Assembly: GCA_964016885.1 (NCBI GenBank)
Contig: OZ024754.1
Coordinates: 27,776,001 to 27,840,000, forward strand
Length of the DNA: 64,000 bases
Direction of reading: 5' to 3'
Source of the DNA: Eledone cirrhosa
Taxonomy: Eukaryota
The notes beneath the pieces are model-generated. The model made no database searches, was not told where the DNA came from, and was given only the letters and a program-made list of their open reading frames with translations. Shown here one piece after another: positions 2,196 through 35,306 of this stretch. Position 1 is the first letter of the stretch, and every line of letters starts with the position of its first letter. A program made the position numbers and the translations under genes.

Positions 2196-2231
<36 letters not shown>

Positions 2232-2243
2232 GTTATTGTTATT
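2196..2243. repeat. (TAA)n tract: tail/target of Dong-like copy A1, left edge of the array
   Basis: (ATT)n with two GTT interruptions abutting the element 3' end. Confidence 0.95.
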
Positions 2244-5200
2244 CCTTGAATCTCAGTCATTGATGTTGGTTAACTGGAAAGTCCGTTGGATTGAATATCA
2301 AGCCACTACCTGCAGCCTCAGATATTCAGGACGTATCGGAGGGTTCTTGCTGTTCCAAGCAAGCATGCCTTTTGAAGCGTTCCAAAAAGCGTGAAGGGGC
2401 CGATTTTCTTTAACCATCCCTGGAAACCTTTGGAGGTAGTCCCCAGTGCGCCTATGACAATCGGGATCACTTTGACTTCATGGCAGTTCCAAATCCTTTT
2501 CACCTCCCACTTTAGGTCCTGGTATCGGTTAATTTTCTCCCTCTCCTTCTCTTGCACTCTCGTGTCGAACGGGCAGGCCACATCCACAATCAGGCACGAT
2601 CTTTTTTCTTTGTCCATAACCACCAGGTCAGGTCTATTGTGTTCCAGTTTTTTGTCCGTCTGTATCCTAAAATCCCACAGCACCTTCACCTGACTGTTCT
2701 CCATCACCGCCTCTGGCCTATGCTCATACCATTTCTCAGAATGTGGTAGATTGTTTACTTTGCACAGGTGCCAGTGGATCACCCTGCCCATCACATCGTG
2801 TCTCCAGCCCTTATAGTGGGTCTGGGCTAGGTGTTTACACTCGGACACAATGTGAGCCACAGTCTCCTCTCTCTCTCCACAGATCCTGCACAGTGGGCTA
2901 GCCTCCTCCTTGTAGATATGGTGCTTCAACCACTTCGTTTTGAGGGCCTGCTCCTGCGCAGCCATTAGCATTCCTTCTGTAGCCTTTTTGAGGTCTCCTC
3001 TTCTCAACCAGTTCCATGTCTGTGGATCTCTAAATTCAGTTTTCTCAAAGAAGGTACTATGAAGGGATTTTCCCTTAAGGCTGCTCTTCCTCCTTGATGT
3101 TATTTCCTCCTTGGACATCCCCTGGCCTACTGTCCCCTCCTTCAGTACAGTTCTGAGCATTGGCTCCTTACTATAGGTCACGTATTTGTATAGGTTGTTT
3201 TTCTCCATCTGAACACAGTCCTCTATGCTGATAAGACCTCTTCCACCCTCAGATCTCCTTAGGTAGAGTCTATCGACATCACTCCTCTTGTGGAACATGT
3301 TGTAGATAGTCAATAGCTTCCTAGTCTTCCTATCCATTTCTTTTTGTTCAGCAACATTCCATCTCAGAATTCCCGCACTGTACCTAATAATAGACACAGC
3401 TCGGGAATTTACTGCGCTTATGGCATTTCTGCTGTTCAGATGTGACTTCAATACGCTCCTTACTCTCCGAATGTATTCAGTTCTTAACAATTCCTTCATT
3501 TTTTTGTTCTTTATGCCATCAGCCTCCAGAACGCCCAAATACTTGTATCCTTCCTCAGAGTCAATTTCCTTTATCATCTCACCTGTTGGTATCTGGATCC
3601 CGTTACTTCTGCTCAACCTACCCCTCTTCATCACAATGACTCCACATTTACCAATACCAAACTGCATACATATATCACTGCTGAAAATACGGACAGTGTC
3701 AACAAGCACATCCAACTCCTTCTCACTTTTCCCGAAGAGCTTAAGATCGTCCATGAAGAGGAGGTGATTGATGGTAAGCTCTCCCCTTCCCAACTTGTAT
3801 CCTGCTCTCACTTTTCGCAGCATAATGGTCAAGGGCATCAGGGCAAGGACAAACAACAGAGGGGACAGGCTATCTCCCTGGAAGATACCTCTCTTGATCT
3901 TCACGCTTCCCAAGGATACTCCAGTTGATGTCAACTCTGTCTCCCAGGACCCCATACTCCTGCCCAGCAACTGTCTGATGTTATCTGCCACCCTGAAGAC
4001 CTCCAGGCTTTTGGTGATCCAGGAATGAGGCACCATGTCAAATGCCTTTCTGTAGTCTATCCATCCCATGGCAAGATCAGTGTGTCTCCTCCTGCAATTC
4101 CCCATTACCATCTTATCAATAAGCAACTGGTCCTTTGTACCACGTGACTTCTTTCGGTATCCTTTCTGTTCGTCCGGTAACAAGTTGTTTGTGTGGAGGT
4201 GATGGTAGATTTCCTCAGACACAATGCTCGTCAACAGTTTCCACATTACGGGCAGACATGTGATAGGTCTATAGTTGGTAACATCATTACCCTTGATTCG
4301 GTCTTTCATTATCAGAACTGTGGTACCTTTTGTCAACCACTCTGGCACCTCACCCGACACCAAGCAGTCATTGAACATGGCCGTCAGCTTCGGGTGGAGG
4401 GATGTTAAATGTCTAATCCAATACCCCTGCACACCATCTGGGCCTGGTGATTTCCAGTTGGTTAGTTTTTTGGCTTGCCCCTTAAGAGTTTCAACTGTGA
4501 TACTCAAATCAGTCTGTTGTTGTGCCTTCTCACCGATCTCCCTCTGTACTGTCTCAATCCACCCTGCCTGGGCATTGTGTCTAACATCCTGCTCCCATAT
4601 TCCTCTCCAGAATGTTTTAGCTTGTTCCGCCCCAGGGATCAAGTCGTTGCCTCTTTCTTTCCCCTCAAGCTGTCCAAACAGCATCTTCTGGTTGTTGTCG
4701 AACATGCGGTTCTGTTTATACTGACTGACTCTGTTCTCGTATCGCCTGATTTTGGCACTCTTTGCTACAATGCGTTGCTTCAATTCCTCTATGATAATAT
4801 TTAGCTTTTTACTCCTAGTTTTGTATTTTATTTCCAGTCTATTTTTAGTGCCTATGTTTTTTAGTGTCCCATTCAGTAGTGACTCAAGCTTTCCTATGTC
4901 ATTTCTCATTTCCCCGATTTGCCCACTCAGTCGCTTCTTCCACCACGGCTCTGCTCTTTCTTGTCTGTTGTTTCCTCTCGCTTTTATACCAAGTAGTTTC
5001 CTCACCGTATTTGCTGTTGCTTTGAGGATATTGTTGCACTGGTGAAGACTCCTCGCCTCAAGGTATGGGATGACTTTGTTTACCTTAGCTGTTGTTTCTT
5101 TTAACTTTTTCCTGTCTACAAATCTTAGGTTCATAGGTCTCCCACTATCATTGTTCAATTCATCTACCACTAGATTTAGGATGTCAACCGAATCTTGTCC

Positions 5201-6774
5201 TAGCCCGTCAGCATTCATCTCCTCAGTGGCCGTATCTCTGTTCCAGGTATTATTTATCTCAGTATTCAGATCATTGTCTGCTTCGGGTGGTTCCTCCGTT
5301 CTCAGGACCTCCTCACCTTCATTTCCCACCGGCTCGCTTGTCTGGCATACTACACCCGCCATCTCCAAGCCATTCTCTCTGCTCAGTTCCTCCAGTTCCA
5401 GCTCGCTTATCCACCCATTAGTTCTTATTACCCGAGCCTGCCCGGCCAATTTTTGTTCATCTAATTTAAATAAACCAATCTCGTTCCAGATGTTATGCAT
5501 CCGTCTCCTGTAGCCCCTCTCCTTGGGGTTACTTTTCAGGTAGCATTGCATAACAGTTCTATTCAATTCTTTCGTCCAGTTGGTTCTGGCCCCTTTCCTT
5601 CTTCTTCTTCCTCCAACATCAGCAGTATTTGGTTGACAGTCAGGTTCCTGCTGCTGAGCCAGGGGGCACCTGTTGGGTGAGAGTCTGTCACATGACGTTC
5701 TAGTCTCCATTTCACCGTTATTCGAACTGTTTATGTTCGATATTTAAACACTCTTATCGAGGATTGGCGAATGTATGTTTACATAGCCATCTGTGGATCC
5801 GCCATCCCACTTGGCCCTTGTGTGGCATTATCACCACGCTGTATACGAACACACATAAACAAACAAACACACGGGCAGAAAGGGCCCCAAAAATGAATAA
5901 GCATAAGTTTCATTGTAATGTAGTATTCGAATGTCTGACTTAGTTTTTGTTTTTTAAGTTTTACTTTTTCCTCCCTCTTCTCTGTCCGTCCGCCTGCTTC
6001 TCTCTTCATTCTTATTTTCTTTACGTTTTGGGGGTTTCTTTTTTTGTTTTTGTTTTTCTCTGTTTGTTTTTCTCGTTTTTTGCTGTTGTTGCTGTGCTGC
6101 TTTGGTTTTGTTGTTTGTTTTTTCTTTTTTCTTTTGAGTCTATCTATATATTTGTTAGTAGTAGAGATTCTATAATGTGGAAGTAGTAGCAGCCAGCAGG
6201 GAGAAGTGGGAGGCTGGCGGCGCTGGCGATACTGAGACAGTGGTGGTGGTGATGTCGATACCGAGGCAGTGGTGGCGGTGATGCGACCGTATTACTGTAG
6301 TGATGGTGCTGTAGCGGTGGCAGCAGCAGTGAAGGAGTCAAGGGGTGGTGGCGGCGGTGATGGGATAGTGGTGGTAATGATGGCCGTAGTGAGCGGTGGC
6401 GGTGAAGGTGAAAATGCTGTTGTGTTTAGTGTACACAGATGATGGGGTGGGTGGTGTATCTAGTTTCTGGTGTTGGTGAGTTTAGCTGTCCTATATAGTG
6501 TAGCCAGAGGAGAGGAGGGGGGGGGGTTCTTCTTCTTCCATTTATAGCCATTTTTTTGGGGGGGATATACAGTGTACAATACAAAGTTGAATATTTGAAT
6601 ATTTGAGCCTTATACCAATATATTTTGGGTCCGAATTTTTTGGGGCTCAAGCCGGGTGCTTTACGTAGCATTTGTACTAAGAGTTGTTATTTCACAAATG
6701 ATTTAAATATGTTAAAAATTCAAAACTTACGGGAGCGATTTCATGACCTCCGTCACCTCGTGCGTCTTCTTCCC
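2244..6774 (-). mobile_element. R4/Dong-clade non-LTR retrotransposon, family A, copy A1 (apparently full length)
   Basis: Single RT-RLE ORF, ~75 nt 3' UTR ending in (TAA)n, and ~1.06 kb 5' UTR starting GGGAAGA, the same start as copy A3. Confidence 0.93.
2318..5710 (-). CDS. Intact 1130-aa reverse transcriptase / restriction-like endonuclease protein (Dong/R4 type)
   Basis: N-terminal Myb-like segment (NWTKELN...HNIWNE...EQKLAGQARVI). RT motifs YRPITCL, WIDYRKAFD, GIFQGDSLSPLLF, HLLFMDD, YKYLG. CCHC knuckle CRIC-x8-H-x4-C, RHD, and PD..D..K nuclease (RPDLVV..IVDVACP..EKINRY). Confidence 0.96.
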   Translation of the reverse strand: METRTSCDRLSPNRCPLAQQQEPDCQPNTADVGGRRRRKGARTNWTKELNRTVMQCYLKSNPKERGYRRRMHNIWNEIGLFKLDEQKLAGQARVIRTNGWISELELEELSRENGLEMAGVVCQTSEPVGNEGEEVLRTEEPPEADNDLNTEINNTWNRDTATEEMNADGLGQDSVDILNLVVDELNNDSGRPMNLRFVDRKKLKETTAKVNKVIPYLEARSLHQCNNILKATANTVRKLLGIKARGNNRQERAEPWWKKRLSGQIGEMRNDIGKLESLLNGTLKNIGTKNRLEIKYKTRSKKLNIIIEELKQRIVAKSAKIRRYENRVSQYKQNRMFDNNQKMLFGQLEGKERGNDLIPGAEQAKTFWRGIWEQDVRHNAQAGWIETVQREIGEKAQQQTDLSITVETLKGQAKKLTNWKSPGPDGVQGYWIRHLTSLHPKLTAMFNDCLVSGEVPEWLTKGTTVLIMKDRIKGNDVTNYRPITCLPVMWKLLTSIVSEEIYHHLHTNNLLPDEQKGYRKKSRGTKDQLLIDKMVMGNCRRRHTDLAMGWIDYRKAFDMVPHSWITKSLEVFRVADNIRQLLGRSMGSWETELTSTGVSLGSVKIKRGIFQGDSLSPLLFVLALMPLTIMLRKVRAGYKLGRGELTINHLLFMDDLKLFGKSEKELDVLVDTVRIFSSDICMQFGIGKCGVIVMKRGRLSRSNGIQIPTGEMIKEIDSEEGYKYLGVLEADGIKNKKMKELLRTEYIRRVRSVLKSHLNSRNAISAVNSRAVSIIRYSAGILRWNVAEQKEMDRKTRKLLTIYNMFHKRSDVDRLYLRRSEGGRGLISIEDCVQMEKNNLYKYVTYSKEPMLRTVLKEGTVGQGMSKEEITSRRKSSLKGKSLHSTFFEKTEFRDPQTWNWLRRGDLKKATEGMLMAAQEQALKTKWLKHHIYKEEASPLCRICGEREETVAHIVSECKHLAQTHYKGWRHDVMGRVIHWHLCKVNNLPHSEKWYEHRPEAVMENSQVKVLWDFRIQTDKKLEHNRPDLVVMDKEKRSCLIVDVACPFDTRVQEKEREKINRYQDLKWEVKRIWNCHEVKVIPIVIGALGTTSKGFQGWLKKIGPFTLFGTLQKACLLGTARTLRYVLNI

Positions 6775-6880
6775 TTATTCTTATTATTATTATTGTTATT
6801 GTTATTCCTTGAATCTCAGTCATTGATGTTGGTTAACTGGAAAGTCCGTTGGATTGAATATCAAGCCACTACCTGCAGCC

Positions 6881-9800
6881 TCAGATATTCAGGACGTATC
6901 GGAGGGTTCTTGCCGTTCCAAGCAAGCATGCCTTTTGAAGCGTTCCAAAAAGCGTGAAGGGGCCGATTTTCTTTAACCATCCCTGGAAACCTTTGGAGAT
7001 AGTCCCCAGTGCGCCTATGACAATCGGGATCACTTTGACTTCATGGCAGTTCCAAATCCTTTTCACCTCCCACTTTAGGTCCTGGTATCGGTTAATTTTC
7101 TCCCTCTCCTTCTCTTGCACTCTCGTGTCGAACGGGCAGGCCACATCCACAATCAGGCACGATCTTTTTTCTTTGTCCACAACCACCAGGTCAGGTCTAT
7201 TGTGTTCCAGTTTTTTGTCCGTCTGTATCCTAAAATCCCACAGCACCTTCACCTGACTGTTCTCCATCACCGCCTCTGGCCTATGCTCATACCATTTCTC
7301 AGATTGTGGTAGATTGTTTACTTTGCACAGGTGCCAGTGGATCACCCTGCCCATCACATCGTGTCTCCAGCCCTTATAGTGGGTCTGGGCTAGGTGTTTA
7401 CACTCGGACACAATGTGAGCCACAGTCTCCTCTCTCTCTCCACAGATCCTGCACAGTGGGCTAGCCTCCTCCTTGTAGATATGGTGCTTCAACCACTTCG
7501 TTTTGAGGGCCTGCTCCTGCGCAGCCATTAGCATTCCTTCTGTAGCCTTTTTGAGGTCTCCTCTTCTCAACCAGTTCCATGTCTGTGGATCTCTAAATTC
7601 AGTTTTCTCAAAGAAGGTACTATGAAGGGATTTTCCCTTAAGGCTGCTCTTCCTCCTTGATGTTATTTCCTCCTTGGGTATCCCCTGGCCTACTGTCCCC
7701 TCCTTCAGTACAGCTCTGAGCATTGGCTCCTTACTATAGGTCACGTATTTGTATAGGTTGTTTTTCTCCATCTGAACACAGTCCTCTATGCTGATAAGAC
7801 CTCTTCCACCCTCAGATCTCCTTAGGTAGAGTCTATCGACATCACTCCTCTTGTGGAACATGTTGTAGATAGTCAATAGCTTCCTAGTCTTCCTATCCAT
7901 TTCTTTTTGTTCAGCAACATTCCATCTCAGAATTCCCGCACTGTACCTAATAATAGACACAGCTCGGGAATTTACTGCGCTTATGGCATTTCTGCTGTTC
8001 AGATGTGACTTCAATACGCTCCTTACTCTCCGAATGTATTCAGTTCTTAACAATTCCTTCATTTTTTTGTTCTTTATGCCATCAGCCTCCAGAACGCCCA
8101 AATACTTGTATCCTTCCTCAGAGTCAATTTCCTTTATCATCTCACCTGTTGGTATCTGGATCCCGTTACTTCTGCTCAACCTACCCCTCCTCATCACAAT
8201 GACTCCACATTTACCAATACCAAACTGCATACATATATCACTGCTGAAAATACGGACAGTGTCAACAAGCACATCCAACTCCTTCTCACTTTTCCCGAAG
8301 AGCTTAAGATCGTCCATGAAGAGGAGGTGATTGATGGTAAGCTCTCCCCTTCCCAACTTGTATCCTGCTCTCACTTTTCGCAGCATAATGGTCAAGGGCA
8401 TCAGGGCAAGGACAAACAACAGAGGGGACAGGCTATCTCCCTGGAAGATACCTCTCTTGATCTTCACGCTTCCCAAGGATACTCCAGTTGATGTCAACTC
8501 TGTCTCCCAGGACCCCATACTCCTGCCCAGCAACTGTCTGATGTTATCTGCCACCCTGAAGATCTCCAGGCTTTTGGTGATCCAGGAATGAGGCACCATG
8601 TCAAATGCCTTTCTGTAGTCTATCCATCCCATGGCAAGATCAGTGTGTCTCCTCCTGCAATTCCCCATTACCATCTTATCAATAAGCAACTGGTCCTTTG
8701 TACCACGTGACTTCTTTCGGCATCCTTTCTGTTCGTCCGGCAACAAGTTGTTTGTGTGGAGGTGATGGTAGATTTCCTCTGACACAATGCTCGTCAACAG
8801 TTTCCACATTACGGGCAGACATGTGATAGGTCTATAGTTGGTAACATCATTACCCTTGATTCGGTCTTTCATTATCAGAACTGTGGTACCTTTTGTCAAC
8901 CACTCTGGCACCTCACCCGACACCAAGCAGTCATTGAACATGGCCGTCAGCTTCGGGTGGAGGGATGTTAAATGTTTAATCCAATACCCTTGCACACCAT
9001 CTGGGCCTGGTGATTTCCAGTAGGTTAGTTTTTTGGCTTGCCCCTTAAGAGTTTCAACTGTGATACTCAAATCAGTCTGTTGCTGTGCCTGCTCACCGAT
9101 CTCCCTCTGTACTGTCTCAATCCACCCTGCCTGGGCATTGTGTCTAACATCCTGCTCCCATATTCCTCTCCAGAATGTTTTAGCTTGTTCCGCCCCAGGG
9201 ATCAAGTCGGTGCCTCTTTCTTTCCCCTCAAGCTGTCCAAACAGCATCTTCTGGTTGTTGTCGAACATGCGGTTCTGTTTATACTGACTGACTCTGTTCT
9301 CGTATCGCCTGATTTTGGCACTCTTTGCTACAATGCGTTGCTTCAATTCCTCTATGATAATATTTAGCTTTTTACTCCTAGTTTTGTATTTTATTTCCAG
9401 TCTATTTTTAGTGCCTATGTTTTTTAGTGTCCCATTCAGTAGTGACTCAAGCTTTCCTATGTCATTTCTCATTTCCCCGATTTGCCCACTCAGTCGCTTC
9501 TTCCACCACGGCTCTGCTCTTTCTTGTCTGTTGTTTCCTCTCGCTTTTATACCAAGTAGTTTCCTCACCGTATTTGCTGTTGCTTTGAGGATATTGTTGC
9601 ACTGGTGAAGACTCCTCGCCTCAAGGTATGGGATGACTTTGTTTACCTTAGCTGTTGTTTCTTTTAACTTTTTCCTGTCTACAAATCTTAGGTTCATAGG
9701 TCTCCCACTATCATTGTTCAACTCATCTACCACTAAATTTAGGATGTCAACCGAATCTTGTCCTAGCCCGTCAGCATTCATCTCCTCAGTGGCCGTATCT

Positions 9801-10273
9801 CTGTTCCAGGTATTATTTATCTCAGTATTCAGATCATTGTCTGCTTCGGGTGGTTCCTCCGCTCTCAGGACCTCCTCACCTTCATTTCCCGCCGGCTCGC
9901 TTGTCTGGCATACTACACCCGCCATCTCCAAGCCATTCTCTCTGCTCAGTTCCTCCAGTTCCAGCTCGCTTATCCACCCATTAGTTCTTATTACCCGAGC
10001 CTGCCCGGCCAATTTTTGTTCATCTAATTTAAATAAACCAATCTCGTTCCAGATGTTATGCATCCGTCTCCTGTAGCCCCTCTCCTTGGGGTTACTTTTC
10101 AGGTAGCATTGCATAACAGTTCTATTCAATTCTTTCGTCCAGTTGGTTCTGGCCCCTTTCCTTCTTCTTCTTCCTCCAACATCAGCAGTATTTCGTTGAC
10201 AGTCAGGTTCCTGCTGCTGAGCCAGGGGGCACCTGTTGGGTGAGAGTCTGTCACATGACGTTCTAGTCTCCAT
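6881..10273 (-). CDS. Intact 1130-aa RT-RLE protein, second copy
   Basis: Same motifs as A1, with about 16 amino-acid differences by eye, so a separate copy. Confidence 0.96.
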   Translation of the reverse strand: METRTSCDRLSPNRCPLAQQQEPDCQRNTADVGGRRRRKGARTNWTKELNRTVMQCYLKSNPKERGYRRRMHNIWNEIGLFKLDEQKLAGQARVIRTNGWISELELEELSRENGLEMAGVVCQTSEPAGNEGEEVLRAEEPPEADNDLNTEINNTWNRDTATEEMNADGLGQDSVDILNLVVDELNNDSGRPMNLRFVDRKKLKETTAKVNKVIPYLEARSLHQCNNILKATANTVRKLLGIKARGNNRQERAEPWWKKRLSGQIGEMRNDIGKLESLLNGTLKNIGTKNRLEIKYKTRSKKLNIIIEELKQRIVAKSAKIRRYENRVSQYKQNRMFDNNQKMLFGQLEGKERGTDLIPGAEQAKTFWRGIWEQDVRHNAQAGWIETVQREIGEQAQQQTDLSITVETLKGQAKKLTYWKSPGPDGVQGYWIKHLTSLHPKLTAMFNDCLVSGEVPEWLTKGTTVLIMKDRIKGNDVTNYRPITCLPVMWKLLTSIVSEEIYHHLHTNNLLPDEQKGCRKKSRGTKDQLLIDKMVMGNCRRRHTDLAMGWIDYRKAFDMVPHSWITKSLEIFRVADNIRQLLGRSMGSWETELTSTGVSLGSVKIKRGIFQGDSLSPLLFVLALMPLTIMLRKVRAGYKLGRGELTINHLLFMDDLKLFGKSEKELDVLVDTVRIFSSDICMQFGIGKCGVIVMRRGRLSRSNGIQIPTGEMIKEIDSEEGYKYLGVLEADGIKNKKMKELLRTEYIRRVRSVLKSHLNSRNAISAVNSRAVSIIRYSAGILRWNVAEQKEMDRKTRKLLTIYNMFHKRSDVDRLYLRRSEGGRGLISIEDCVQMEKNNLYKYVTYSKEPMLRAVLKEGTVGQGIPKEEITSRRKSSLKGKSLHSTFFEKTEFRDPQTWNWLRRGDLKKATEGMLMAAQEQALKTKWLKHHIYKEEASPLCRICGEREETVAHIVSECKHLAQTHYKGWRHDVMGRVIHWHLCKVNNLPQSEKWYEHRPEAVMENSQVKVLWDFRIQTDKKLEHNRPDLVVVDKEKRSCLIVDVACPFDTRVQEKEREKINRYQDLKWEVKRIWNCHEVKVIPIVIGALGTISKGFQGWLKKIGPFTLFGTLQKACLLGTARTLRYVLNI

Positions 10274-10842
10274 TTCACCGTTATTCGAACTGTTTATGTT
10301 CGATATTTAAACACTCTTATCGAGGATTGGCGAATGTATGTTTACATAGCCATCTGTGGATCCGCCATCCCACTTGGCCCTTGTGTGGCATTATCACCAC
10401 GCTGTATACGAACACACATAAACAAACAAACACACGGGCAGAAAGGGCCCCAAAAATGAATAAGCATAAGTTTCATTGTAATGTAGTATTCGAATGTCTG
10501 ACTTAGTTTTTGTTTTTTAAGTTTTACTTTTTCCCCCCTCTTCTCTGTCCGTCCGCCTGCTTCTCTCTTCATTCTTATTTTCTTTACGTTTTTGGGGTTT
10601 CTTTTTTTGTTTTTGTTTTTCTCTGTTTTTCTCGTTTTTTACTGTTGTTGCTGTGCTGCTTTTGTTGTTTGTTTTTTCTTTTTTCTTTTGAGTCTATCTA
10701 TATATTTTGATGCCTTCCTCTTTGTTAGTAGTAGGAATTCTATAATGTGGAAGTGGTAGCCAGCAGAGACTGGCGGCGTTGGCGATACTGAGACAGTGGT
10801 GGTGGTGATGTCGATACCGAGGCAGTGGTGGCGGTGATGCGA

Positions 10843-11487
10843 CCGTATTACTGTAGTGATGGTGCTGTAGCGGTGGCAGCAGCAGTGAAGGAGTCAGGGG
10901 GTGGTGGCGGCGGTGATGGGATAGTGGTGGTAATGATGGCCGTAGTAAGCGGTGGCGGTGAAGGTGAAAATGCTGTTGTGTTTAGTGTACACAGATGATG
11001 GGGTGGGTGGTGTATCTAGTTTCTGGTGTTGGTGAGTTTCGCTGTCCTATATAGTGTAGCCAGAGGAGAGGAGGGGGGGGGGGGGGTTTCTTCTTCTTCC
11101 ATTTATAGCCATTTTATTTTATTGGGGATATACAGTGTACAATACAAAGTTGAATATTTGAATATTTGAGCCGTATTACTGTAGTGATGGTGCTGTAGCG
11201 GTGGCAGCAGCAGTGAAGGAGTCAAGGGGTGGTGGCGGCGGTGATGGGATAGTGGTGGTAATGATGGCCGTAGTGAGCGGTGGCGGTGAAGGTGAAAATG
11301 CTGTTGTGTTTAGTGTACACAGATGATGGGGTGGGTGGTGTATCTAGTTTCTGGTGTTGGTGAGTTTAGCTGTCCTATATAGTGTAGCCAGAGGAGAGGA
11401 GGGGGGGGGTTCTTCTTCTTCCATTTATAGCCATTTTTTTTTGGATATACAGTGTACAATACAAAGTTGAATATTTGAATATTTGAG
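10843..11487. repeat. ~320-330 bp tandem duplication within the A2 5' UTR
   Basis: ccgtattactgtagtg...aatatttgag at 10843-11170 and again at 11171-11487; single copy in A1. Confidence 0.9.
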
Positions 11488-11786
11488 CCTTATAACAATA
11501 TATTTTGGGTCCGAATTTTTTGGGGCTCAAGCCGGGTGCTTTACGTAGCATTTGTACTATTATTATTATTATTGAATGCCATGGTTGACGGAGGCTCGGC
11601 TCTGTAAGGTATAGTAATTTTTAACCGTTAAAACAATTGTAAATTGTTTAAAACTTGAACCAAATTGTTGATAAAGACACCCTCCTCCTCGTGAGAGGGG
11701 TCTTTCTGTCCGTTATTTGGCCCTTCGGGGTTAAATAACCAGTTATTGGGGTTTTGTACCCAAAATTTCATTTTAAACAAAAAAAC

Positions 11787-13886
11787 ATGGCTACCAAAAA
11801 AAAAAAATTTCATACGTCACTCCCACTCATTCCGTCTTCTTCTTCCTCAATCATCACTACAGGAGAGAGAAGATTGTCTCTCTCCCTCCCTTCTTTAAAT
11901 GTGTCTCTCTCCCTACCTTCTCTTTCGCAAGCGACGAAAGAAAAGAAAAGTCTCGTGCAAAGCGTGCAAGGTTTCTCCACGACGACGACGACAGCGACGA
12001 AACAGGTGTGCGGGAAATACGAAAACCCAGTTCATTCGTCTGACGTCAGGAATAATAGCAGTAGCAGCCGTAATAACAACAGCAACAGTGACAATGAAAA
12101 CAACAGTAGCAGCCGCAACAGCATCACCAGCAGCATAAACAACAACAGCATTAGCAGCAGCAACACCAACAACAACCACAGCAACAGCGGCGGAGGCAGT
12201 AGTCGTAGTACCTGCAGCAACAACAAAAGTACCAGCAGCTCTGACGACAACAACAACAGCAGAGAAAAACCAATCTCATTTGCAGGTATTGCGAAAAACC
12301 TGGAAACAATCCTCATAACAAATGAGGAATTAGAGGAAGCGAAGAAGATGGTGACAAAGAACGGACACCGAGCAATCTGCAAGGCAGCGAAAAAATTTTT
12401 CGAAACCCAAGAGCACTGTACGGTCACGTACCGTACAGTAAGTACAAAATCCCGTAGGGTGGAAAGAGCCACAGAGGCCCAAATACAAAAAGCCTTGGGG
12501 TCTGTGTGGCAGAGGAAAACGCACATCACCCGAGGCAAAAAATACGCCACCGTAGACGTACTTTTTGCCACACCCCAGGAGGCAAAGGCCCAATCAGTAG
12601 TGACCCTAAGGAGCGAGGAAATGGTGTTGGTGCCCTCCTACTGCGGGCAAAAAATTGTGAGGGTCAAACTGACCCACGTCCCCCCCGGAATGACCCCTTC
12701 TTGGCTGGCCGCGTCTGTCCTCGTCGGAATCGAGGACAAAACAACTGTACTGCAAGTACAGAAAAAAGTAAGAGAAGATTGGGTCGGCTCCTCCATTGAG
12801 ATGCTAATCCAAACCAACCAGGAGTGCATCGAAGCTATCCCGGATGTGATAGACTTCGATAACGGCACTCAACTGCCCATAAGTGTTGAGGGCAAACGCC
12901 CGAAATGCTTTCGCTGTGGATCGAAGACTCACCTCAGGGCCTTCTGCAACGAGAAGACCCTGAGAAAGGAGAAAACCCCCCTCCTCCCGAATCCGGTTCC
13001 ACGGCTACCAGCAACAGGACAAGCGGCAACCAGGAACGATAGGTCCGTGGCACCCATACCCACTCCACGGAAATCAAAGACAGCAGCAGCAGTGGAAATA
13101 TTAACAACAACAACAGCAATACCAAATGCAGCTGCAACAGAGACTCCAGTGCAAACATCACCAACAACAACAAGTGAAAGAGTGGAGCTGGTACCCCTCC
13201 CCGACCTTACAGAATCAGACATGGAGTGTGAGGTGGGAGAGGGATGGCAAAAGGTCTCAAGAAGGCACAAACGCAGAAGCAGCGCATCGTCGCCTTTGAA
13301 AAGGGAGGAAAGAAATGAGAAAAGGGTAAAGTCTACTGCAAAGAGACCCACAGCAGCAACACCACCAACACCATCACCACCCACACCAGCACCACCATCA
13401 CCACCGGCGACAACCCCACCGCCAACAACACCTTCAACACCACCACCACAAGCACCAACATCGCAAACACAACAACAAAACACACACACCCAGCAACAAC
13501 GACAAGAAAATAGCAGAACCACACCCCACCCCCAGAAAAACAAATGCACGGCAATAAACACACACAACAAGAAACTAATGACTTACATAATTGAACACAC
13601 AGACATTTCACAACAGGACTACATAATACCAGCACCAATCAAAACGCCAACTAACATAAGACTGCTAAAAATAGCACAGAAACAATACACAAACATTAAA
13701 ACGAAATTCCCCAACGCAGTTGGTGATTTCAGGGACCTAGGAGGAACCATTAATCGAAGAGTATATTCAGACATTCTCTTAGAAGAGCCGACGACCAGCC
13801 GAAGGGACGATTCAACGGTCCCTTCACCAGACGATCAAGTGAAAAGGGATGTAAAAACCATCCCTCCTCTACCAAAAATACGGTAA
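11787..13886 (+). CDS. Tx1-type ORF1 (gag-like nucleic-acid-binding protein)
   Basis: ATG at 11787 (aaacATGg), S/N-rich N-terminus, central folded region, CCHC zinc knuckle CFRCGSKTHLRAFC, P/T-rich linker. Lies 35 nt upstream of ORF2. Confidence 0.88.
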   Translation: MATKKKKFHTSLPLIPSSSSSIITTGERRLSLSLPSLNVSLSLPSLSQATKEKKSLVQSVQGFSTTTTTATKQVCGKYENPVHSSDVRNNSSSSRNNNSNSDNENNSSSRNSITSSINNNSISSSNTNNNHSNSGGGSSRSTCSNNKSTSSSDDNNNSREKPISFAGIAKNLETILITNEELEEAKKMVTKNGHRAICKAAKKFFETQEHCTVTYRTVSTKSRRVERATEAQIQKALGSVWQRKTHITRGKKYATVDVLFATPQEAKAQSVVTLRSEEMVLVPSYCGQKIVRVKLTHVPPGMTPSWLAASVLVGIEDKTTVLQVQKKVREDWVGSSIEMLIQTNQECIEAIPDVIDFDNGTQLPISVEGKRPKCFRCGSKTHLRAFCNEKTLRKEKTPLLPNPVPRLPATGQAATRNDRSVAPIPTPRKSKTAAAVEILTTTTAIPNAAATETPVQTSPTTTSERVELVPLPDLTESDMECEVGEGWQKVSRRHKRRSSASSPLKREERNEKRVKSTAKRPTAATPPTPSPPTPAPPSPPATTPPPTTPSTPPPQAPTSQTQQQNTHTQQQRQENSRTTPHPQKNKCTAINTHNKKLMTYIIEHTDISQQDYIIPAPIKTPTNIRLLKIAQKQYTNIKTKFPNAVGDFRDLGGTINRRVYSDILLEEPTTSRRDDSTVPSPDDQVKRDVKTIPPLPKIR

Positions 13887-13921
13887 GTGGTCTTTCCCAT
13901 CTTTTCCACTCTATTTTAAAC

Positions 13922-16900
13922 ATGACCTCACTCAGAATAGGCAGCATAAATGCGCGTGGCTTGGGGTCGTCATGGAAGCAGGGTCACCTGCTCAACGACC
14001 TCAGGTCACTAAACATAGATGTAGTGGCCATCAGCGAGACCAGAATCTCCGAAGCACGGGCCTTCGCACCGATCTTCGGCGGCTACGATGTGTACGCATC
14101 TCCCAGCCGTCCTGGATCGGGTGGAGGAGTTGCTGTGCTTTTTCGGAGAGGTTTGGATCTCGCCATACGGGCCATCTTCCTGGACCCAGAGGGTAAGCTG
14201 GTGGTGCTGGACGTGACCAGCGGAGACGGGCAAGCTTTCAGGCTAGTGGCCGTCTATGCCCCGACAGGAGCAGGGCGGCCTGATTTCTTCCGGCGTCTGG
14301 AGACCTTTCTTGGAACGTCGCGCTCTTTAGTGTTAGTGGGCGACTGGAACGGGATCTTAGATGCACGCTGGGACTGTGTGGGATTAGCGGATAGGAGTGG
14401 AGGGTGCAAGAGCCTCACCAACCTGCTCAAGCGTTTTGAACTGTCTGACAGGTACCGATTGGATTTCCCGAATGTGCCCATGTGGACTTGGACAAACCGC
14501 ATAGGGTCATCCAGATCATATCTAGATAGAGTATTTTGTAGGGAAATAGATAGGTCTAGCATAGGCTGTCCACAATTCAAGATAGTCAGCTACACGGACC
14601 ACAAATTCGTGACCTGTGTGCTTGACTTAGATAGGCTTCATAGACGAGGACCCGGCTACTGGAAGCTAAACGCGTCCTTACCAGCGCGCAAGGCCTACAG
14701 AGACCGGATTAGCGAACTAGTTAAGCGGGCGTTGACGGGGGCCATCGTCAACAACAAGTGGTGGTTTGCTCTGAAAAGAGCGATTAGAATAGAATCGATT
14801 AGGTTTAGTAAGGCTTTAGCAATAGAGAAAAATAGAGCAGAGGGAGAACTAGTTAGAAAATTAGACGAGGCGCTTAGCAAAGGCATTGCGACCGACGTGC
14901 TTGCGGCGAAATTGGCCCTTGACCAATTCTTCAATGCAAAGCACGAAGGCTGCGTTGTCAGAGCTAGGGTGCGTGCTCTCAGACACGAGGGGACGAAAGC
15001 CGTTCAATGGGCCCGAGTGGCGGAGGCGCGTCGTGGCAACAAAGCCACGATCGGGTCTTTGGTGGACCACGACGGGCGCATGCTACTCGATCCCGGGCAA
15101 ATGTGTGAAGCTTTTCAGCGACACTTCGCTCAGCTGTTCGGGGGCAGCGGGGGGCCGGGTAGAGGGATGGACTTTAGTGTCTACCTCGACGGACTGCCGC
15201 GGCTCTCGGCCACTGAGGCGAAGTGTTGCGAAAAGCCGATAACAGCCGCTGAAGTACGGGAGGCAATGACTGGCTGCACAAGGGGTAAATCGCCTGGTTT
15301 GGATGGTCTGCCCTATGAACTTTACGTACAGATGCCAGACTTGTTCGGAGGCCTCTTGGCGGACGTCTACTGCAACTGGCAACAGAACGGGAGAATTCCC
15401 AGTTCTGTGAGCCGAGGAGCGGTGGCACTGCTGAGAAAGGATCCGAACAAGGGGGATAACATAGACAATTTCCGGCCCATAACTCTGCTAAACACAGAGT
15501 TTAAGATTTTGGCCAAGGTGCTAGCAAAGAGGTTGGCGCTTGTCGTTGGTGGTCTGGTGGGAGAGGCGCAGACATGCGCCATTCCCGACAGATCCATCCA
15601 CGACAACCTCCACCTCATGCGATACATCGTAGAGAGGGTAGCTAGGGAACCTGGCACGGGTGGGTCCTTGATCAATTTAGATCAGTCGAAAGCTTTCGAT
15701 AGGGTCGACCATCGTTACCTAGCGGCAGTCCTGAGGGCGGCTGGCTTTGGGCCCGTCTTCAGAGGCTGGATCGCTGCCATGCACAGCGACATCTGCTCTG
15801 TGGTGAGAGTGAACGGTCACCTGTCGGAACCGTTCAACATCATGCGCTCGGTCCGCCAAGGATGTCCCCTCTCGTCCCTCTTGTACGTATTGACTCTCGA
15901 GCCATTACTGCACAAACTGGAGACGTTGAGGGGAGTCCCGCGCGAACTAGGATGCGGAAGATCCGTGTCAGCATATGCGGACGATGTCACCGTAGTGGTG
16001 TCGAACGCCAAACACATCGAGGCGATCGGCACTACACTAAGAGAATACGAAGCGGTGACAGGAGCAATGATCAACCAGGAAAAGTCAGTGGGCCTGCAGC
16101 TCGGCACCTGGAGAGGCAGGTCCATGCCGTCCAACAGCGTCGTCGGGCGCTGGACGGACGGACCGGTTAAATTGCTAGGGGTCTGGTTCGGTCCGGACCT
16201 CCAGACGGACAAAAACTGGGACGAGGTGACGAGCAGGGTGGCTTCTCTCACCCAGAAATGGGCGGAGAGGAAGCTATCCCTGAAAGGTCGAGCGGAGGTG
16301 GCTAACGCGTACATCGCGTCTGTCATCTGCTACCGCCTAACCGTCGTACCTTGTCCTAAGCCTCGCCTGACTGCGCTGGAGCGTTTGCTCTTTCGCTTTT
16401 TGTGGAAGGGACGTGCTCCGATGGTCAGGCGGTCCATCTGTTGTCAACACCCGCTACGTGGAGGGCTGGGCATGCCGTGGCTGATGATGCGCAGGCACGC
16501 GCTCAGGCTACGACATCTCCACCTCTTCCTCGACGGTGATCAGGTGTGGTCGCCGTTTGCTAGACGCGTTTTTCCCCAGCTCGTTTCCTTGACGGAGCTG
16601 CAGTCCTGGGTCAAGCGAAGACCGAGAGGGAGCGCCTGGAGACTGGAATGTCTTCAGGCGCTCACAGCCCTCGACCAATCGGGCAATGTGATCGGTGGAA
16701 ACTCCACCTCGGCGTTCTATAGAGGATTAGTGGAGGGGAAGAGCGACGACGTACTTGGGGAAACTCTAGGCGTCGACGAAAATCAACTAGCCAATCTCTT
16801 CGGAAGAACTTTCGGGCCAGGGCCTATGGACAACTTCCAGAAATCTCTGGCCTGGCAGTGCTACCGAGGAGCCTTGCCAGTTCGGGATAAACTCTACAGG

Positions 16901-17341: not shown

Positions 17342-17569
17342 ACTAAAGGTGGAAAACTGGGAGAGGGCACTTGCCTTGGTGGTCAGGGTCATTGTGGCTT
17401 TTTACTGGGCTTTCTCCACAAATGTCCCTCCGAAGTCTCCCCCCTATTGGGGAATTTTTCATTGTTATTTTCATTGTTATTTTTGTTACATCCTCTGTTT
17501 TTGTTTTTTTTTTACACGCAGAAATGCCCATTTGTACTGTCCTGCATTGTCCTGCACTGTCCTTAATGT

Positions 17570-20500
17570 CTATTATCCTCTCCTTCAGTACAATTCTGAG
17601 CATTGGCTCCTTACTATCAGTCACGTATTTGTGTAGGTTGTTTTTCTCCATCTGCACACTGTTCTCTATGCTGATAAGACCTCTTCCACCTTCAGATCTC
17701 CTTTAGTAGAGTCTATCGACATCACTCCTCTTGTGGAACATGTTGTAGATAGTCAATAGCTTCCTAGTTTTCCTATCCATTTCTTTTTGTTCAGCAACAT
17801 TCCATCTCAGAATTCCCGCACTGTACCTAATAATAGACACAGCTCGGGAATTTACTGCACTTATGGCATTCCTACTGTTCAGGTGTGACTTTAATACGCT
17901 CCTTACTCTCCGAATGTATTCAGATCTTATCAATTCCTTCATTTTTTTGTTCTTGATGTCATCAGCCTCCAGAACACCCAAATACTTGTATCCTTCTTCA
18001 GTGTCAATTTCTTTTATCATCTCACCTGTTGGTACCTGGATTCCGCTGCTTCTTCATCACAAGGACTCCACACTTACTAATACCAAATTGCATACATATA
18101 TCATTGCTGAAAATACGGACAGTGTCAACAAGCACATCCAACTCCTTCTCACTCTTCCCGAAGAGCTTAAGATCGTCCATGAAGAGGGGGTGATTGATAG
18201 TAAGCTCTCCCTTTGCCAACTTGTATCCTGCTCTCACTTTTCGCAGTATAATGGTCAGGGGCATCAGGGCAAGAACAAACAAGAGAGGGGACAGACTATC
18301 TCCTTGGAAGATACCTCTCTTGATCTTCACGCCTCCCAAGGATTCTCCAGCTGATGTTAACTCTGTTTTCCAGGACTTCATACTTTTGCCCAACAACTGT
18401 CTGATGTTATCTGCCACCTTGAAGATCTCTAGGCTTTTGGTGATCCAAGAATGAGGCACCATGTCAAATGCCTTTTTGTAGTCTATCCATCCCATGACAA
18501 GACCAGTGTGTCTCCTCTTGCAATTCCTTATCAATAAGTAACTGGTCCTTTGTACCACGGGACTTCTTTCGGCATACTTTCTGTTCGTCCGGTAACACGT
18601 TGTTTGTATGAAGCTGATGGTAGATTTCCTCAGACATAATTCTTGTCAACAGTTTCCACATTACGGACAGACATGTGATAGGTCTATAGTTGGTAACATC
18701 ATTACCCTTGATTCGGTCTTTCATTACCAGAACTGTGGTACCTTTTGTCAACCATTCTGGTACCTCACCTGACATCAAGCAGTCATTGAACATGGTTGTC
18801 AGTTTCGGGTGGAGGGATGTTATATTTTTAATCCAATACCCCTGCACACCATCTGGGCCTGGTGATTTCCAGTTGGTTAGTTTTTTTACCTGCCCCTTAA
18901 GAGTTTCAACTGTGATACTCAAATCAGTTTGTTGGTGTGCTTCTTCACTAATCTCCTTTTGTACTGTCTTAATCCACACTGCCTGGTCATTATGTTTAAC
19001 ATCCTGCTCCCATATTCCTCTCCAGAATGTCTTAGTTTGTTCCGCCTCAGGGATCAAGTCGTTGCCTCTTTCTTTCCCTTCAAGCTGTCCAAACAGCATC
19101 TTCTGGTTGTTGTCAAACATGCGGTTCTGTCTATACTGACTGACTCTGCTCTCGTATCGCCTAATTTTTGCACTCTTTGCTACAATGCGTTGCTTCAGTT
19201 CCTCTATGATAATATTTAGCTTTTTCCTCCTAGTTTTGTACTTTATTTCCATTCTATTTTTACTGTCTATGTTTTTTAGTGTCCCATTCAGTAGGGATTC
19301 AAGCTTTCCAATGTCATTTCTCATTTCCCTGATTTGACCATTCACTCGTTTCTTCCACCAAGGTTCTGATCTTTCTTGTTTGTTGTTTCCTCTCGCTTTT
19401 ATGCCAAGTAATTTCCTCACCGCATTTGCTGTTGCTTTGAGGATATTGTTGCACTGGTGAAGGCTCCTCGCCTCAAGGTATGGGATGACTTTGTTTACCT
19501 TAGCTGTTGTTTCTTTTACATTTTTCCTGTCTACAAATCTTAGGTTCATAGGTTTCCCACTATCATTGTTCAATTCATCTACCACTAAGTTTAGGATATC
19601 AACCAAATCTTGTCCTAGCCCGTCAGCATTCATCTCCTCAATGACCGTATCTTTGTTCCAGGTATTATTTATTTCAGCATTCAGATCATTGTCTGCTTCG
19701 GGTGGTTCCTCCGTTCTCTCAACCTCTTCACCTTCATTTCCCACTGGCTCGTTTGCCTGGCATACTCCGCTCTCCATTTCCAACCTAATCTCTCTGCTCA
19801 GTTCCTCCAGTTCCAGCTCGCTTATCCACCCATTAGTTATTATTACCCGAGCCTGCCCGACCAATTTTTGTTCATCTAATTTAAATAGACCAATCTCGTT
19901 CCAGATGTTATGCATCCGTTTCCTATAGCCTTTCTCCTTGGGGTTACTCTTCAGGTAACATTGCATAACAGTTCTATTCAATTCTTTCGTCCAGTTGATT
20001 CTGGTCCCTTTCCTTCTTCTTCTTCCGACACCAGCAGTATTTGGTTGACAGCCAGGTCCCTGCTGCTGAGCCAGGTAGCACCTGCTGGGTGAGAGTCTGT
20101 CACATGACATTCCAGTCTCCACTTCACCGTTATTCGAACTGTTTAGGTTCGACATTTAAACACTCTTATCGAGGATTGGTAAATGTATGGTTACATAACC
20201 ACCGGTGATTTCATCCCCTCCGGTGATTTTAGTGTGGCACTATCACGCTGTAGACGAACATAAATAAACAAACAAATAGGTAAAAAAAAAAAAAAAAAGA
20301 ATAGGCATAAGTTTCATTGTAATGTAATGTTTGAATGTCTGACTTAGTTATTTTTTTCCTCCTTCTATGTCTGTCTGTTTCTTTTTCTTTTCATTTTTCT
20401 TTTCTTTACGTTTTTCGTTGTTGCTGTGCTGTTTTGATTTTGATTTTTGTTTTTTTGATATCTTGACCGGGTCATCAAATCAGTCTATTTATATCTTTGG

Positions 20501-21068
20501 ATGCTTTCCTCTTTTAGTGGGGGTACTACGATGCATGTCTTAGCAGGAGGTAGTGGGAGAGAATAACGGCGGTAGCGATAATGAGGCAGTGGTGGTGGTG
20601 GTGCTGTGCTAGTAGTACTTAGCAGGAGGTAGTGGGAGAGAATAGCGGCGGTAGCGATAATGAGGCAGTGGTGGTGGTGATGTGATCGTAGTACTGTAGT
20701 GATGATGGTGTTGAAGTTGAAGTAGAAATAGAAGTTGAGGTAACTTGACTAGAGTTTTTGGCGTGGTAGTGGTGATAGTGGCGGTGGTGGTGTTGGTGGT
20801 GAAATTATTTAGCCATTTTGCCATTTTCCTCTTTTTCGACTATAACATTTCTGATCCAAAATTAAATATTAAATATTGGGGCCCTATGCGGTAAAGTGAT
20901 GCGTTGTGGCTTGCTGAGCGTAAAAAACTACAAATAATAAACTACAAATTCTTATACATCATTTGTAATAAGAATTATTCTATCACAGTTGTTTTAAATA
21001 AGTAAAAATCAAAAACTTACGAGAGCGATTCCATAACGATATATATCCACCATGTACGTTGTCTTCCC
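17570..21068 (-). mobile_element. Dong-like copy A3 (diverged subfamily; frameshifted; 3' part lost)
   Basis: ORF pieces 20155-18464, 18558-18022 and 18020-17703 match the A1 protein. 5' end GGGAAGA at 21068. The C-terminal ~0.9 kb is absent at the T1 junction. Confidence 0.92.
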
Positions 21069-25135
<4,067 letters not shown>

Positions 25136-25399
25136 CTTTTTGTTGTTTTTTTTTAAATTGTTATTATCATGAGTGGCTCCTTAATGTGAGCATTGCGTGG
25201 CTTAAGAATGAAATTATTAATAATTGTCTCCACTCCAGGAACAAGGCCAGCAATCACCCAATGCATTACAATAATATAATATACTTTTTGCTGAAGTTGC
25301 CTGTTATTGTTGTTGGCTATGTCGGAGGTGGTGATGGGGCTTTTTATATTGTTGGTGAGGAAGGGGTGAGCCAGCAGTCCCATAGTTGTTGATTTTGAC

Positions 25400-25800
25400 G
25401 TTTGGCCGGTGGCCAGGTCACTAAGTCAATCTATTTATATCTTTTGCTAGCCTCTCCCTTGTCTAGTGATACCGCCACCTTCCCCTTTCTCTCTCAAGTT
25501 AACAGGGGAATAGTGGTGGTAGCAATGAAGGAGTGGTGGCGGCGGTGATGGGATAGTGGTAGCAATGATGGATGGAGTGGTGGCGGCGGTGGCGTTGTCG
25601 TTACTGAGTTTTGTGATATGTAGTATATATGAGTTTGTGTCGTGTATGTTTAATATATATTGTGTTGACATAGTCCCGTAAAATTGGAATTAAACATTTT
25701 GTTAAAACTTGAGACAATAATAATAGTAATTATTATTATGATGCTGGGATTGGTGGTGGTGGTGGTGAAATTGCCGTTATCTGGCTGTTATATTTAGTGT
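25400..25800 (-). mobile_element. Mosaic of segments homologous to the family A 5' UTR
   Basis: gtca..tcaatctatttatatctttt matches A3 ~20470-20500. gtggtggcggcggtgatgggatagtggt matches A1 ~6345-6373. cgttatctggctgtt..tttagtgt matches A5 ~28920-28945. Confidence 0.65.
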
Positions 25801-27687: not shown

Positions 27688-27749
<62 letters not shown>

Positions 27750-27761
27750 GTTATTGTTATT

Positions 27762-28965
27762 CCTTGAATCTCAGTCATTGATGTTGGTTAACTGGAAAGT
27801 CCGTTGGATTGAATATCAAGCCACTACCTGCAGCCTCAGATATTCAGGACGTATCGGAGGGTTCTTGCTGTTCCAAGCAAGCATGCCTTTCCAAAAAGCG
27901 TGAAGGGGCCGATTTTCTTTAACCATCCCTTTGAAACTTTTGTTCATCTAATTTAAATAAACCAATCTCGTTCCAGATGTTATGCATCCGTCTCCTGTAG
28001 CCCCTCTCCTTGGGGTTACTTTTCAGGTAACATTGCATAACAGTTCTATTCAATTCTTTCGTCCAGTTGGTTCTGGCCCCTTTCCTTCTTCTCCTTCCTC
28101 CAACATCAGCAGTATTTGGTTGACAGTCAGGTTCCTGCTGCTGAGCCAGGGGGCACCTGTTGGGTGAGAGTCTGTCACATGACGTTCTAGTCTCCATTTC
28201 ACCGTTATTCGAACTGTTTATGTTCGATATTTAAACACTATTATCGAGGATTGGCGAATGTATGGTTACATATCCATCTGTGGATCCGCTATTCCACTTG
28301 GCCCTTGTGTGGCATTATCACCACGCTGTATACGAACACACATAAACAAACAAACACACAGGCAGAAAGGGCCCCAAAAATGAATAAGCATAAGTTTCAT
28401 TGTAATGTAGTGTTCGAATGTCTGACTTAGTTTTTGTTTTTTAAGTTTTAGTTTTTCCCCCCTCTTCTCTGTCCGCCCGCCTGTTTCTCTCTTCATTCTT
28501 ATTTTCTTTACGTTTTTGGGGTTTTCTGTTTTTTTTTGTTTTTGTTTTTCTCTGTTTGTTTTTCTCGTTTTTTGCTGTTGTTGCTGTGCTGCTTTGGTTT
28601 TGTTGTTTGTTTTTTCTTTTTTCTTTTGAGTCTATCTATATATTTTGATGCCTTCCTCTTTGTTAGTAGTAGGAATTCTATAATGTGGAAGTAGCAGCCA
28701 GCAGGGAGAAGTGGGAGACTGGCGGCGGTAGCGATACTGAGATAGTGGTGGTGGTGATGTCGATACCGAGGCAGTGGTGGCGGTGATGCGACCGTATTAC
28801 TGTAGTGATGGTGCTGTAGCGGTGGCAGCAGTGAAGGAGTAAAGGGGTGGTGGCGGCGGTGATGGGATAGTGGTGGTAATGATGGCCGTAGTGAGCGGTG
28901 GTGGTGAAGGTGAAAATGACGTTATCTGGCTGTTGTGTTTAGTGTACACAGATGGGGTGAGTGGT
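27762..28965 (-). mobile_element. Dong-like copy A5, internally deleted (~3 kb), both flanks in (TAA)n
   Basis: Most of the 5' UTR plus the first ~87 codons are joined at ttttg (27938-27942) to the last ~100 nt of the ORF and the 3' UTR. Confidence 0.92.
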
Positions 28966-29580: not shown

Positions 29581-29785
29581 GGCGACCTACTTAGTAAATG
29601 TTATCATCGTGAGCTCCGCAAAGGTTTGTTATTTTCAGTTGTTTAAAATTGCCATTTATGAAATTTTTTATTGTTAAATGTGCACATACATTGTTTTCTG
29701 AAAAGGACACACAAAAAGATTGGGGCCTTGAGCCCAAAATTTATACTTTTATAATTATCAAACAAAAGTTTTTCTTTGTAAAATC

Positions 29786-35033: not shown

Positions 35034-35306
35034 ATTAAAGGTGGAAAACTGGGAGAGGGCACTTGCCTTGGTGGTCAGGGTCACTGTGGCCTTTTACTGG
35101 GCTTTCTCCACAAATGTCCCTCCCCCTATTGGGGAATTTTTCATTGTTATTTTTTTTTGTTACATCCTCTGTTTTTGTTTTTTACACGCAGAAATGCCCA
35201 TTTGTACCGCCCTGTATTGTCCTGTACTGTCCTTAATGTCTACTTTATGTAAACCTTTGTGGTTAATAAAGAAATCATTATTATTATTATTATTATTGTT
35301 GTTATT

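Follow-up and report, generated by a model that had tools for sequence, protein, structure and literature searches.

A candidate spliceosomal intron in the 5′ leader of a Dong-like retrotransposon from Eledone cirrhosa

Elements that are copied through RNA normally lose their introns, and intron loss is their hallmark. Could such an element nevertheless keep one? The question is raised by a retrotransposon without long terminal repeats (a non-LTR retrotransposon, or long interspersed nuclear element, LINE) in a 64,000-nucleotide stretch of the Eledone cirrhosa genome (GenBank assembly GCA_964016885.1, contig OZ024754.1, positions 27,776,001 to 27,840,000; hereafter the window, to which all positions below refer). 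Copy A1 of this element (2196-6775, minus strand) appears from self-BLAST, a match to RVT_1 and PDB matches to be a 5′-complete Dong-like (R4-type) retrotransposon, with a leader of approximately 1030 nt, one open reading frame (ORF), a short 3′ untranslated region (UTR) and a (TAA)n tail (tail repeat at 2196-2243). Within the leader lies a predicted intron of 892 nt (5839-6730, minus strand), between a predicted exon 1 of about 45 nt (6731-6775), the 5′ end of which matches that of a second, diverged copy, A3, and a predicted exon-2 leader of 95 nt (5744-5838). The feature is real and non-random; that it is an intron in a Dong-like leader is plausible, if unproven, on the sequence evidence set out here.

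Three other copies in the same orientation bear on the question: A2 (6775-11559), which is near-identical to A1, A3 (17570-21065), which has lost its 3′ end and has its ORF ATG at 20155, and A5 (27730-28965), which has an internal ORF deletion near 27940. The original prediction placed a minus-strand GTAAGT donor at 6730 in A1 and at 21020 in A3, and both positions are exact, at base 46 from the 5′ ends that we used. In A1 this GTAAGT (6725-6730, followed by an AU-rich stretch) is the sole one among 207 sense-strand GTs, and in A3 there are two among 169, that at 21020 included. The hexamer on its own is common (24 in the window), and the context of the donor GT matches U1, with a weak exon side (CCC, CTC). 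The predicted acceptor motif, TTCGT[AC]TACAG, likewise ends precisely where it was said to, at 5839, 10402, 20248 and 28326 in A1, A2, A3 and A5, respectively; it occurs nowhere else in the window, and each of the four lies on the minus strand.

In each of the four copies the acceptor consists of a U-rich, AG-free tract and CAG approximately 95 nt upstream of the ORF, on a strand that is otherwise A-rich. The T content of the 40 nt upstream of 5839 (0.55) ranks first among the 396 sense AGs of A1 (next, 0.425) and the AG-free length (94 nt) ranks second, and at 20248 both values (0.70 and 89 nt) rank first among the 293 sense AGs of A3. The acceptor block as a whole (5839-5945, minus strand) comprises a conserved 50-nt stretch, CTTAT at -66, the U-rich tract and the CAG. 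Two weaker branch-point candidates of the form YTNAY, this CTTAT (-66/-61) and TTTAT (-18), are present in all four copies and would favor an intron. The polypyrimidine tract, AG-free zone, YAG and 5′ GT expected of a U2-type intron are all found. Donor and acceptor are both present only in A1 and A3, where the predicted introns measure 892 nt and 773 nt, A2 and A5 being 5′-truncated inside the interval. The A1 interval is A/C-rich, of low complexity and tolerant of indels; it contains seven ATGs, and neither AATAAA nor ATTAAA occurs in its 892 nt. As a coding ORF it was rejected, having stops in all frames and only low-complexity noise in Pfam. The exon-2 leader is weakly structured (fold z -1.8, with changes on both sides in 2 of 27 predicted pairs) and would have four ATGs left.

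A donor followed by an acceptor of this kind arose in none of 3000 dinucleotide-shuffled leaders of A1 and in 3 of 3000 of A3, in 3 of 3000 and 197 of 3000, respectively, when local composition was preserved, and in none of 52 flank tiles or 16 LINE-body tiles, all of which are optimistic counts, as the thresholds were taken from A1's own values. Between A1 and A3 the leader is identical at 631 of 1032 positions, far below the four-fold sites of the ORF (238/260; first and second codon positions, 806/858 each), as would be expected if leaders were swapped or fast-evolving. By part, identity is 64/79 in the donor block, 393/709 in the middle and 85/107 in the acceptor block, and both blocks are less identical than the four-fold sites. 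The claim that the two signals were kept although the sequence between them differs strongly can thus be sustained in part: the middle does differ more, but the signals show no excess over their neighbors, as 15 of 74 six-mers in the donor block and 71 of 106 dinucleotides in the acceptor block are fully conserved between the two leaders. The acceptor tract has changed in sequence from A1 to A3 and has stayed U-rich and AG-free, which speaks for an intron; that its character is unchanged despite the sequence change favors constraint.

Which RNA gave rise to these copies? The interval is kept in all four copies that span the acceptor, and the 5′ junctions of A2 and A5 lie inside it, adjoining TAA repeats. 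Because of this retention and these two starts, intron-containing RNA was likely the template, as originally proposed. The upstream neighbors of A1 and A3 differ. A1 and A2 may be a DNA duplicate (3403 of 3426 ORF positions identical), so the four copies are not fully independent, and by binomial arithmetic a count of zero spliced copies in four allows a spliced fraction of up to approximately 0.5. A rearrangement within one of these copies was also considered: the internal deletion of A5 was rejected as a splice event, having no GT/AG and showing short microhomology. A tandem duplication of approximately 330-390 nt was seen by self-BLAST inside the predicted intron of A2 (11171-11559).

In A1, 7 of the 12 ATGs upstream of the ORF would be lost by splicing, and in A3, 11 of 15. 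Splicing would not be needed to supply a start codon. The intact A1 ORF (2318-5743, minus strand; 1141 codons stop to stop) encodes reverse transcriptase, a CCHC finger and an RPD motif of the restriction-like endonuclease (RLE) type, and the start position of the family reads ATA in A1, A2 and A5, and in A3 it reads ATG. Forty-five full-length homologs (selected by length from 120 listed) have N-termini that align at the A3 ATG and A1 ATA, and therefore the protein needs no spliced-in start; the distance from the start to a conserved tryptophan motif has a median of 48 among the 33 measurable of 62 long homologs, vs. 54-55 in family A. The ATA codons (5743 in A1, 10306 in A2 and ~28230 in A5, minus strand) stand immediately after an in-frame TAA, and the first ATG of the A1 ORF is at 5710, 11 codons past the start position, where A3 has GTG. 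The ATG of exon 1 (6744), which splicing to 5838 would place in a different frame from the ORF, was rejected as the ORF start on account of that frame at the main acceptor and of the homolog N-termini at the 5743/20155 position. An AG at 5727, present in all four copies, would put this ATG in frame, but it has no pyrimidine tract.

The donor lies in a 5′ module of about 220 nt that family A appears to have in common with L1/Tx1-type elements, a point absent from the original prediction. The A1 module (6545-6775, minus strand) resembles the whole 5′UTR of B1 (11574-11793, plus strand), a LINE with an apurinic/apyrimidinic endonuclease (APE), and ends at ATGGCTA. Aligned end to end, the two are identical at 133 of 206 positions, with a global score of 68.5 vs. 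13.0±9.0 in block shuffles (reached by 0/1000), the end point at ATGGCTA having been picked by eye. ATGGCTA is the start of ORF1 in B1 and a dead ATG inside the A interval, and the donor motif stands 179 nt before it in A1 and 183 nt before it in B1, which favors a borrowed leader. With fixed 200-nt 5′ ends, the scores of the six pairs of A1, A3, B1 and B2 (the second L1/Tx1-type copy, with its 5′UTR at 29581-29792, plus strand) were reached by 0, 3, 0, 34, 0, and 0 of 1000 block shuffles; the A1-B2 score of 62.0 is clearly above the best of 2552 unrelated tiles (43.0), and in an earlier local test two of 1966 unrelated tiles outscored A1-B1. Homology between the start of the A leader and the L1/Tx1-type 5′UTR is likely, not certain, and the module is likely an internal promoter. 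At the position equivalent to the A donor, B1 has GTAAGG (11604) and B2 has the same module with GC replacing GT and another GT a few bases on, and a plus-strand sequence at 25676-25740 that resembles the donor block reads GTAAAA.

Several other relationships of the leader did not hold up or were ambiguous. As an exact pattern, a shared 11-nt donor motif was rejected, with three matches vs. 1.64 expected and neither B1 nor B2 matched. Derivation of the U-rich tract from the B 3′UTR is unsupported, as only T-runs match (scores equaled in 218, 169, 25, and 5 out of 1000 shuffles), and homology of the exon-2 leader with the leader of D, a distant and decayed Dong copy with 26-45% amino-acid identity to A1, was not significant. 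The comparison of the middle of the predicted intron with a decayed B ORF1 gave mixed results (0 to 106 of 150 block shuffles over eight pairs). At 25390-25800, upstream of D on the minus strand, there are also fragments with homology to the middle part of this leader.

Taking these observations together, we consider it an evenly balanced proposition that 6730-5839 is a real, weakly spliced U2-type intron in a borrowed polymerase II leader, one that persists via unspliced copies. Two of its elements are observed: the presence, in each of two diverged leaders, of a donor-like site at +46 and of an acceptor-like site about 95 nt before the ORF that is the strongest in the element, and the similarity of the first ~220 nt to the 5′UTR of L1/Tx1-type LINEs that use the same repeats, which would reflect homology. 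The remaining steps are conditional. The 5′ module would be an internal promoter that the Dong lineage acquired from an element of the L1/Tx1 type, and it would have replaced the ribozyme end known from Bombyx Dong, which is like that of hepatitis delta virus (HDV). Splicing would skip the dead ATG and the low-complexity filler, remove the majority of the A1 upstream ATGs (the 7 of 12 noted above) and aid translation of the ORF, and unspliced RNA would have been the template of all four copies, each of which is seen to retain the interval. As approximately 180 of the 220 nt of the module lie inside the predicted intron, a spliced copy would be left with little of the promoter and would be a dead end, by analogy with the spliced integrated retrotransposed elements (SpIREs) of human L1. 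We propose that copies fit for another round of transcription would come from unspliced RNA only, and that the intron persists for this reason; a strict separation of translated and copied RNA pools is not required.

A number of observations weigh against this proposal. No YTRAY branch point is present in the last 120 nt of the predicted intron, and the exact spliced junction was not found in the window, none of the four copies lacking the interval. The A3 result is not significant when local composition is preserved (the 197/3000 above). GT and AG are no more conserved than their neighbors, one of the two outcomes that the original prediction had together named as telling against it, in a comparison of two independent leaders, which are too few. 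The caveat that some upstream ATGs would outlast splicing is borne out, as five remain in A1, and the ATG of exon 1 would begin an ORF in the wrong frame, 32 codons long in A1 and 10 codons long in A3. With regard to the module, the A1-B1 score over 200 nt (44.5) is barely above that of the best unrelated tile, and B2 has GC at the donor equivalent. Finally, an acceptor-like site in the B1 3′UTR, at 17521, is equally strong (T content 0.65, 84 nt AG-free), so that these LINEs can have a U-rich tract with CAG for which no part in an intron is apparent. This tract (17480-17521, plus strand) has a matching counterpart in the 3′UTR of B2, near 35191.

Several of these points are also what is expected if no meaningful splicing takes place, an explanation that we regard as doubtful but the most serious competitor. 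On this view the GTAAGT belongs to a promoter motif in the DNA that several LINE families have in common, with either GT or GC tolerated, and the U-rich tract would be an RNA or DNA element in its own right, or else a T-run that has drifted and ends in CAG by chance. The module is common to B1 and B2, and B2 has it without the GT; the sequence at 25676-25740 resembles the donor block and has GTAAAA in its place; the acceptor-like site at 17521 equals that of A1; the conserved blocks reach 50-60 nt past what splicing requires; and no copy of the four is spliced. Strong splice sites in polymerase II transcripts are usually recognized, and this counts against the absence of splicing. So does the requirement that two sites with no connection to each other should by coincidence have the correct order and strand, each being the best of its element in two diverged leaders. 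There is, on the other hand, a precedent in human L1, in which the donor is described as kept because it lies in a RUNX3 site, with most RNAs unspliced (PMC5860796).

The leading idea of the original prediction, in which splicing is efficient and labor strictly divided, with spliced RNA serving as the mRNA and the protein acting in trans to copy a pool of unspliced RNA in the nucleus, now seems improbable. Its assets are the strength of both sites, the removal of most upstream ATGs and the absence of a spliced copy among the four, together with reports that the LTR element BARE has distinct translated and copied RNA pools (PMC3735527) and that Penelope-like elements retain introns (PMC3846280). 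LINE proteins usually prefer the RNA that encodes them, however, as is said of L1 (PMC5860796), and many spliced copies would then be expected. With four copies, two of them 99% identical, efficient splicing of this kind and the weak splicing proposed above are inseparable. The weakest alternative, and a very improbable one, is that the acceptor mainly traps read-through from upstream copies or host genes and thereby borrows a promoter, its own donor being secondary, as copies do stand head to tail, the acceptor survives in the 5′-truncated A2 (whose ORF is intact) and A5, and an L1 has been described to co-opt a host promoter via a splice acceptor (10.1101/2025.02.02.635956), but 0.8-0.9 kb upstream the element has a donor of its own that is the best possible, the bodies of upstream A copies offer no better one, and the window yielded no host gene (of 22 flank ORFs, none exceeded the Pfam cut-off).

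A more far-reaching version of the weak-splicing proposal would be that an RLE-type Dong LINE exchanged its self-cleaving ribozyme end for the polymerase II promoter of an APE-type L1/Tx1 LINE with the same target repeat, and that it retains, under selection, a functional spliceosomal intron by which the captured start of ORF1 is skipped; if true, a 5′ swap across clades would have produced a LINE that depends on spliced mRNA as well as on an unspliced template. We think this version unlikely. The 5′ end of Bombyx Dong is reported to carry a self-cleaving HDV-like ribozyme (PMC3774820). Descriptor searches and Rfam found no HDV-like fold at the 5′ ends of A1 and A3, although divergent ribozymes can escape these, and the predicted folds there are no better than shuffles (z 1.01 and 0.03). 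One loose match to an HDV descriptor over the U-rich tract of A1 is absent from A3. A ribozyme behind the conserved blocks was likewise rejected, with HDV-like descriptors negative for A1 and A3 and no hammerhead core, as was a structured RNA family in the leader, the Rfam matches being at chance level only. In the leader of D, the segment 25127-25037 (minus strand) has an HDV-like topology (P1 of 6 bp, P2 of 5 bp, P3 of 3 bp and a 7-nt loop). This candidate fold, approximately 155 nt upstream of the D ATG, was reached in 1 of 2000 shuffles and has three matches in the whole window, by a descriptor that was composed once the fold had been seen; a loop base that is normally fixed is different, and there is no match in Rfam. 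The lack of such a fold in the A1 and A3 leaders, with a candidate in D, counts in favor of the weak-splicing proposal as well.

The assignment of family A to the Dong-like (R4-type) elements is based on architecture and target. Pfam identified the A1 reverse transcriptase (RVT_1, E 8e-24); the CCHC finger is at residue 952 and the RPD motif at 1037; no APE domain was found in the family A protein by Pfam search; and the best solved relatives of the A1 protein in the PDB are R2 proteins. A single ORF with reverse transcriptase, a C-terminal CCHC finger and RLE endonuclease and no APE is the arrangement of R4/Dong elements, which are described as single-ORF elements with C-terminal RLE-type motifs and a (TAA)n target (PMC7998251), and the tails and 5′ junctions of family A indicate insertion into (TAA)n repeats. 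None of the 120 homologs listed carries the name Dong or R4.

The copies are part of a nested array of approximately 34 kb (2196-36150), in which two Dong-like families on the minus strand and the L1/Tx1-type elements on the plus strand sit in each other's (TAA)n tails, as determined by self-BLAST and a repeat scan. Non-LTR retrotransposons in (TAA)n repeats fill the left 36 kb of the window, with the A copies head to tail, and the flanks are rich in AT microsatellites. Family B, on the strand opposite to A, has ORF1 and ORF2, the APE endonuclease of ORF2 being closest to LINE-1 ORF2; we take it to be Tx1-type. In B1 the stop of ORF1 overlaps a GTAAGT, and downstream of this come a pyrimidine tract and, at 13935, an AG (13883-13935, plus strand). 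Excision of these 53 nt would fuse ORF1 and ORF2 in frame, and splicing of the donor at 11604, downstream of the ATG at 11581, to the AG at 13935 would also be in frame with ORF2; the chance of each such frame match is 1 in 3. Outside the array, a near-perfect inverted repeat with arms of about 200 nt (37025-37441) is possibly a fold-back element or an assembly artifact.

How would such an element compare with known systems? The original statement that an intron is unusual for LINE-type elements did not take into account that sense-strand splice sites in a LINE 5′UTR are known from human L1 (PMC5860796); the accompanying remark that introns are kept in Penelope-like elements agrees with published accounts. 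In human L1, splicing within the 5′UTR is reported to remove promoter sites, with most RNA unspliced and approximately 2% of full-length copies spliced (PMC5860796). The layout of A resembles that of the L1 SpIREs, with a donor near the 5′ end in the promoter region, an acceptor before the ORF and most copies keeping the interval, and spliced copies would similarly lose promoter sequence. It differs in that A is an RLE-type, single-ORF LINE with a full GTAAGT and a 90-nt AG-free, U-rich tract, and in that its intron is predicted from sequence, with none of the four copies in the window spliced. Like the Dong element of Bombyx mori and nematode R4, A has a single ORF, reverse transcriptase with C-terminal RLE-type motifs and (TAA)n insertion (PMC3774820, PMC7998251); unlike Bombyx Dong with its 5′ HDV-like ribozyme (PMC3774820), A1 and A3 have a leader of about 1 kb with splice-like sites and no such fold.

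If the intron is real, A would also be like the Penelope-like elements in keeping an intron through RNA-based copying, which for those elements has been proposed to occur via antisense or unspliced templates (PMC4209133, PMC3846280). Penelope-like elements differ in their GIY-YIG endonuclease, pseudo-LTRs (pLTRs) and hammerhead ribozymes, none of which is seen in A, in which Pfam and self-BLAST found neither a GIY-YIG match nor terminal repeats. Drosophila TART and Neurospora Tad are further non-LTR elements described with introns in their transcripts; the TART introns are in antisense RNA and mostly 53-104 nt (PMC1636488), whereas that predicted in A occupies the sense strand, with a length of 773-892 nt. 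A literature search, mostly without subscription papers and Repbase reports, found neither an intron in an R4/Dong element nor an L1-to-Dong leader swap, and the Chlamydomonas literature that was looked at contained nothing on LINE introns.

In octopus, Dong-R4 is reported as the LINE group with the most recently active insertions (1129; PMC13282606, Table 1), and both Dong-R4 and L1-Tx1 are described as abundant (PMC13282606, PMC8967140). A LINE with a strong sense-strand intron would probe how unspliced RNA is chosen for copying and whether LINE proteins have to work on their own RNA. In human cells the HUSH complex recognizes RNA-copied elements by their loss of introns (PMC8770142), and such a LINE would also test whether an intron helps an element to escape silencing. 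A 5′ module common to RLE- and APE-type LINEs would, in turn, show promoter exchange between distant clades, as well as a switch from ribozyme-made to promoter-made 5′ ends.

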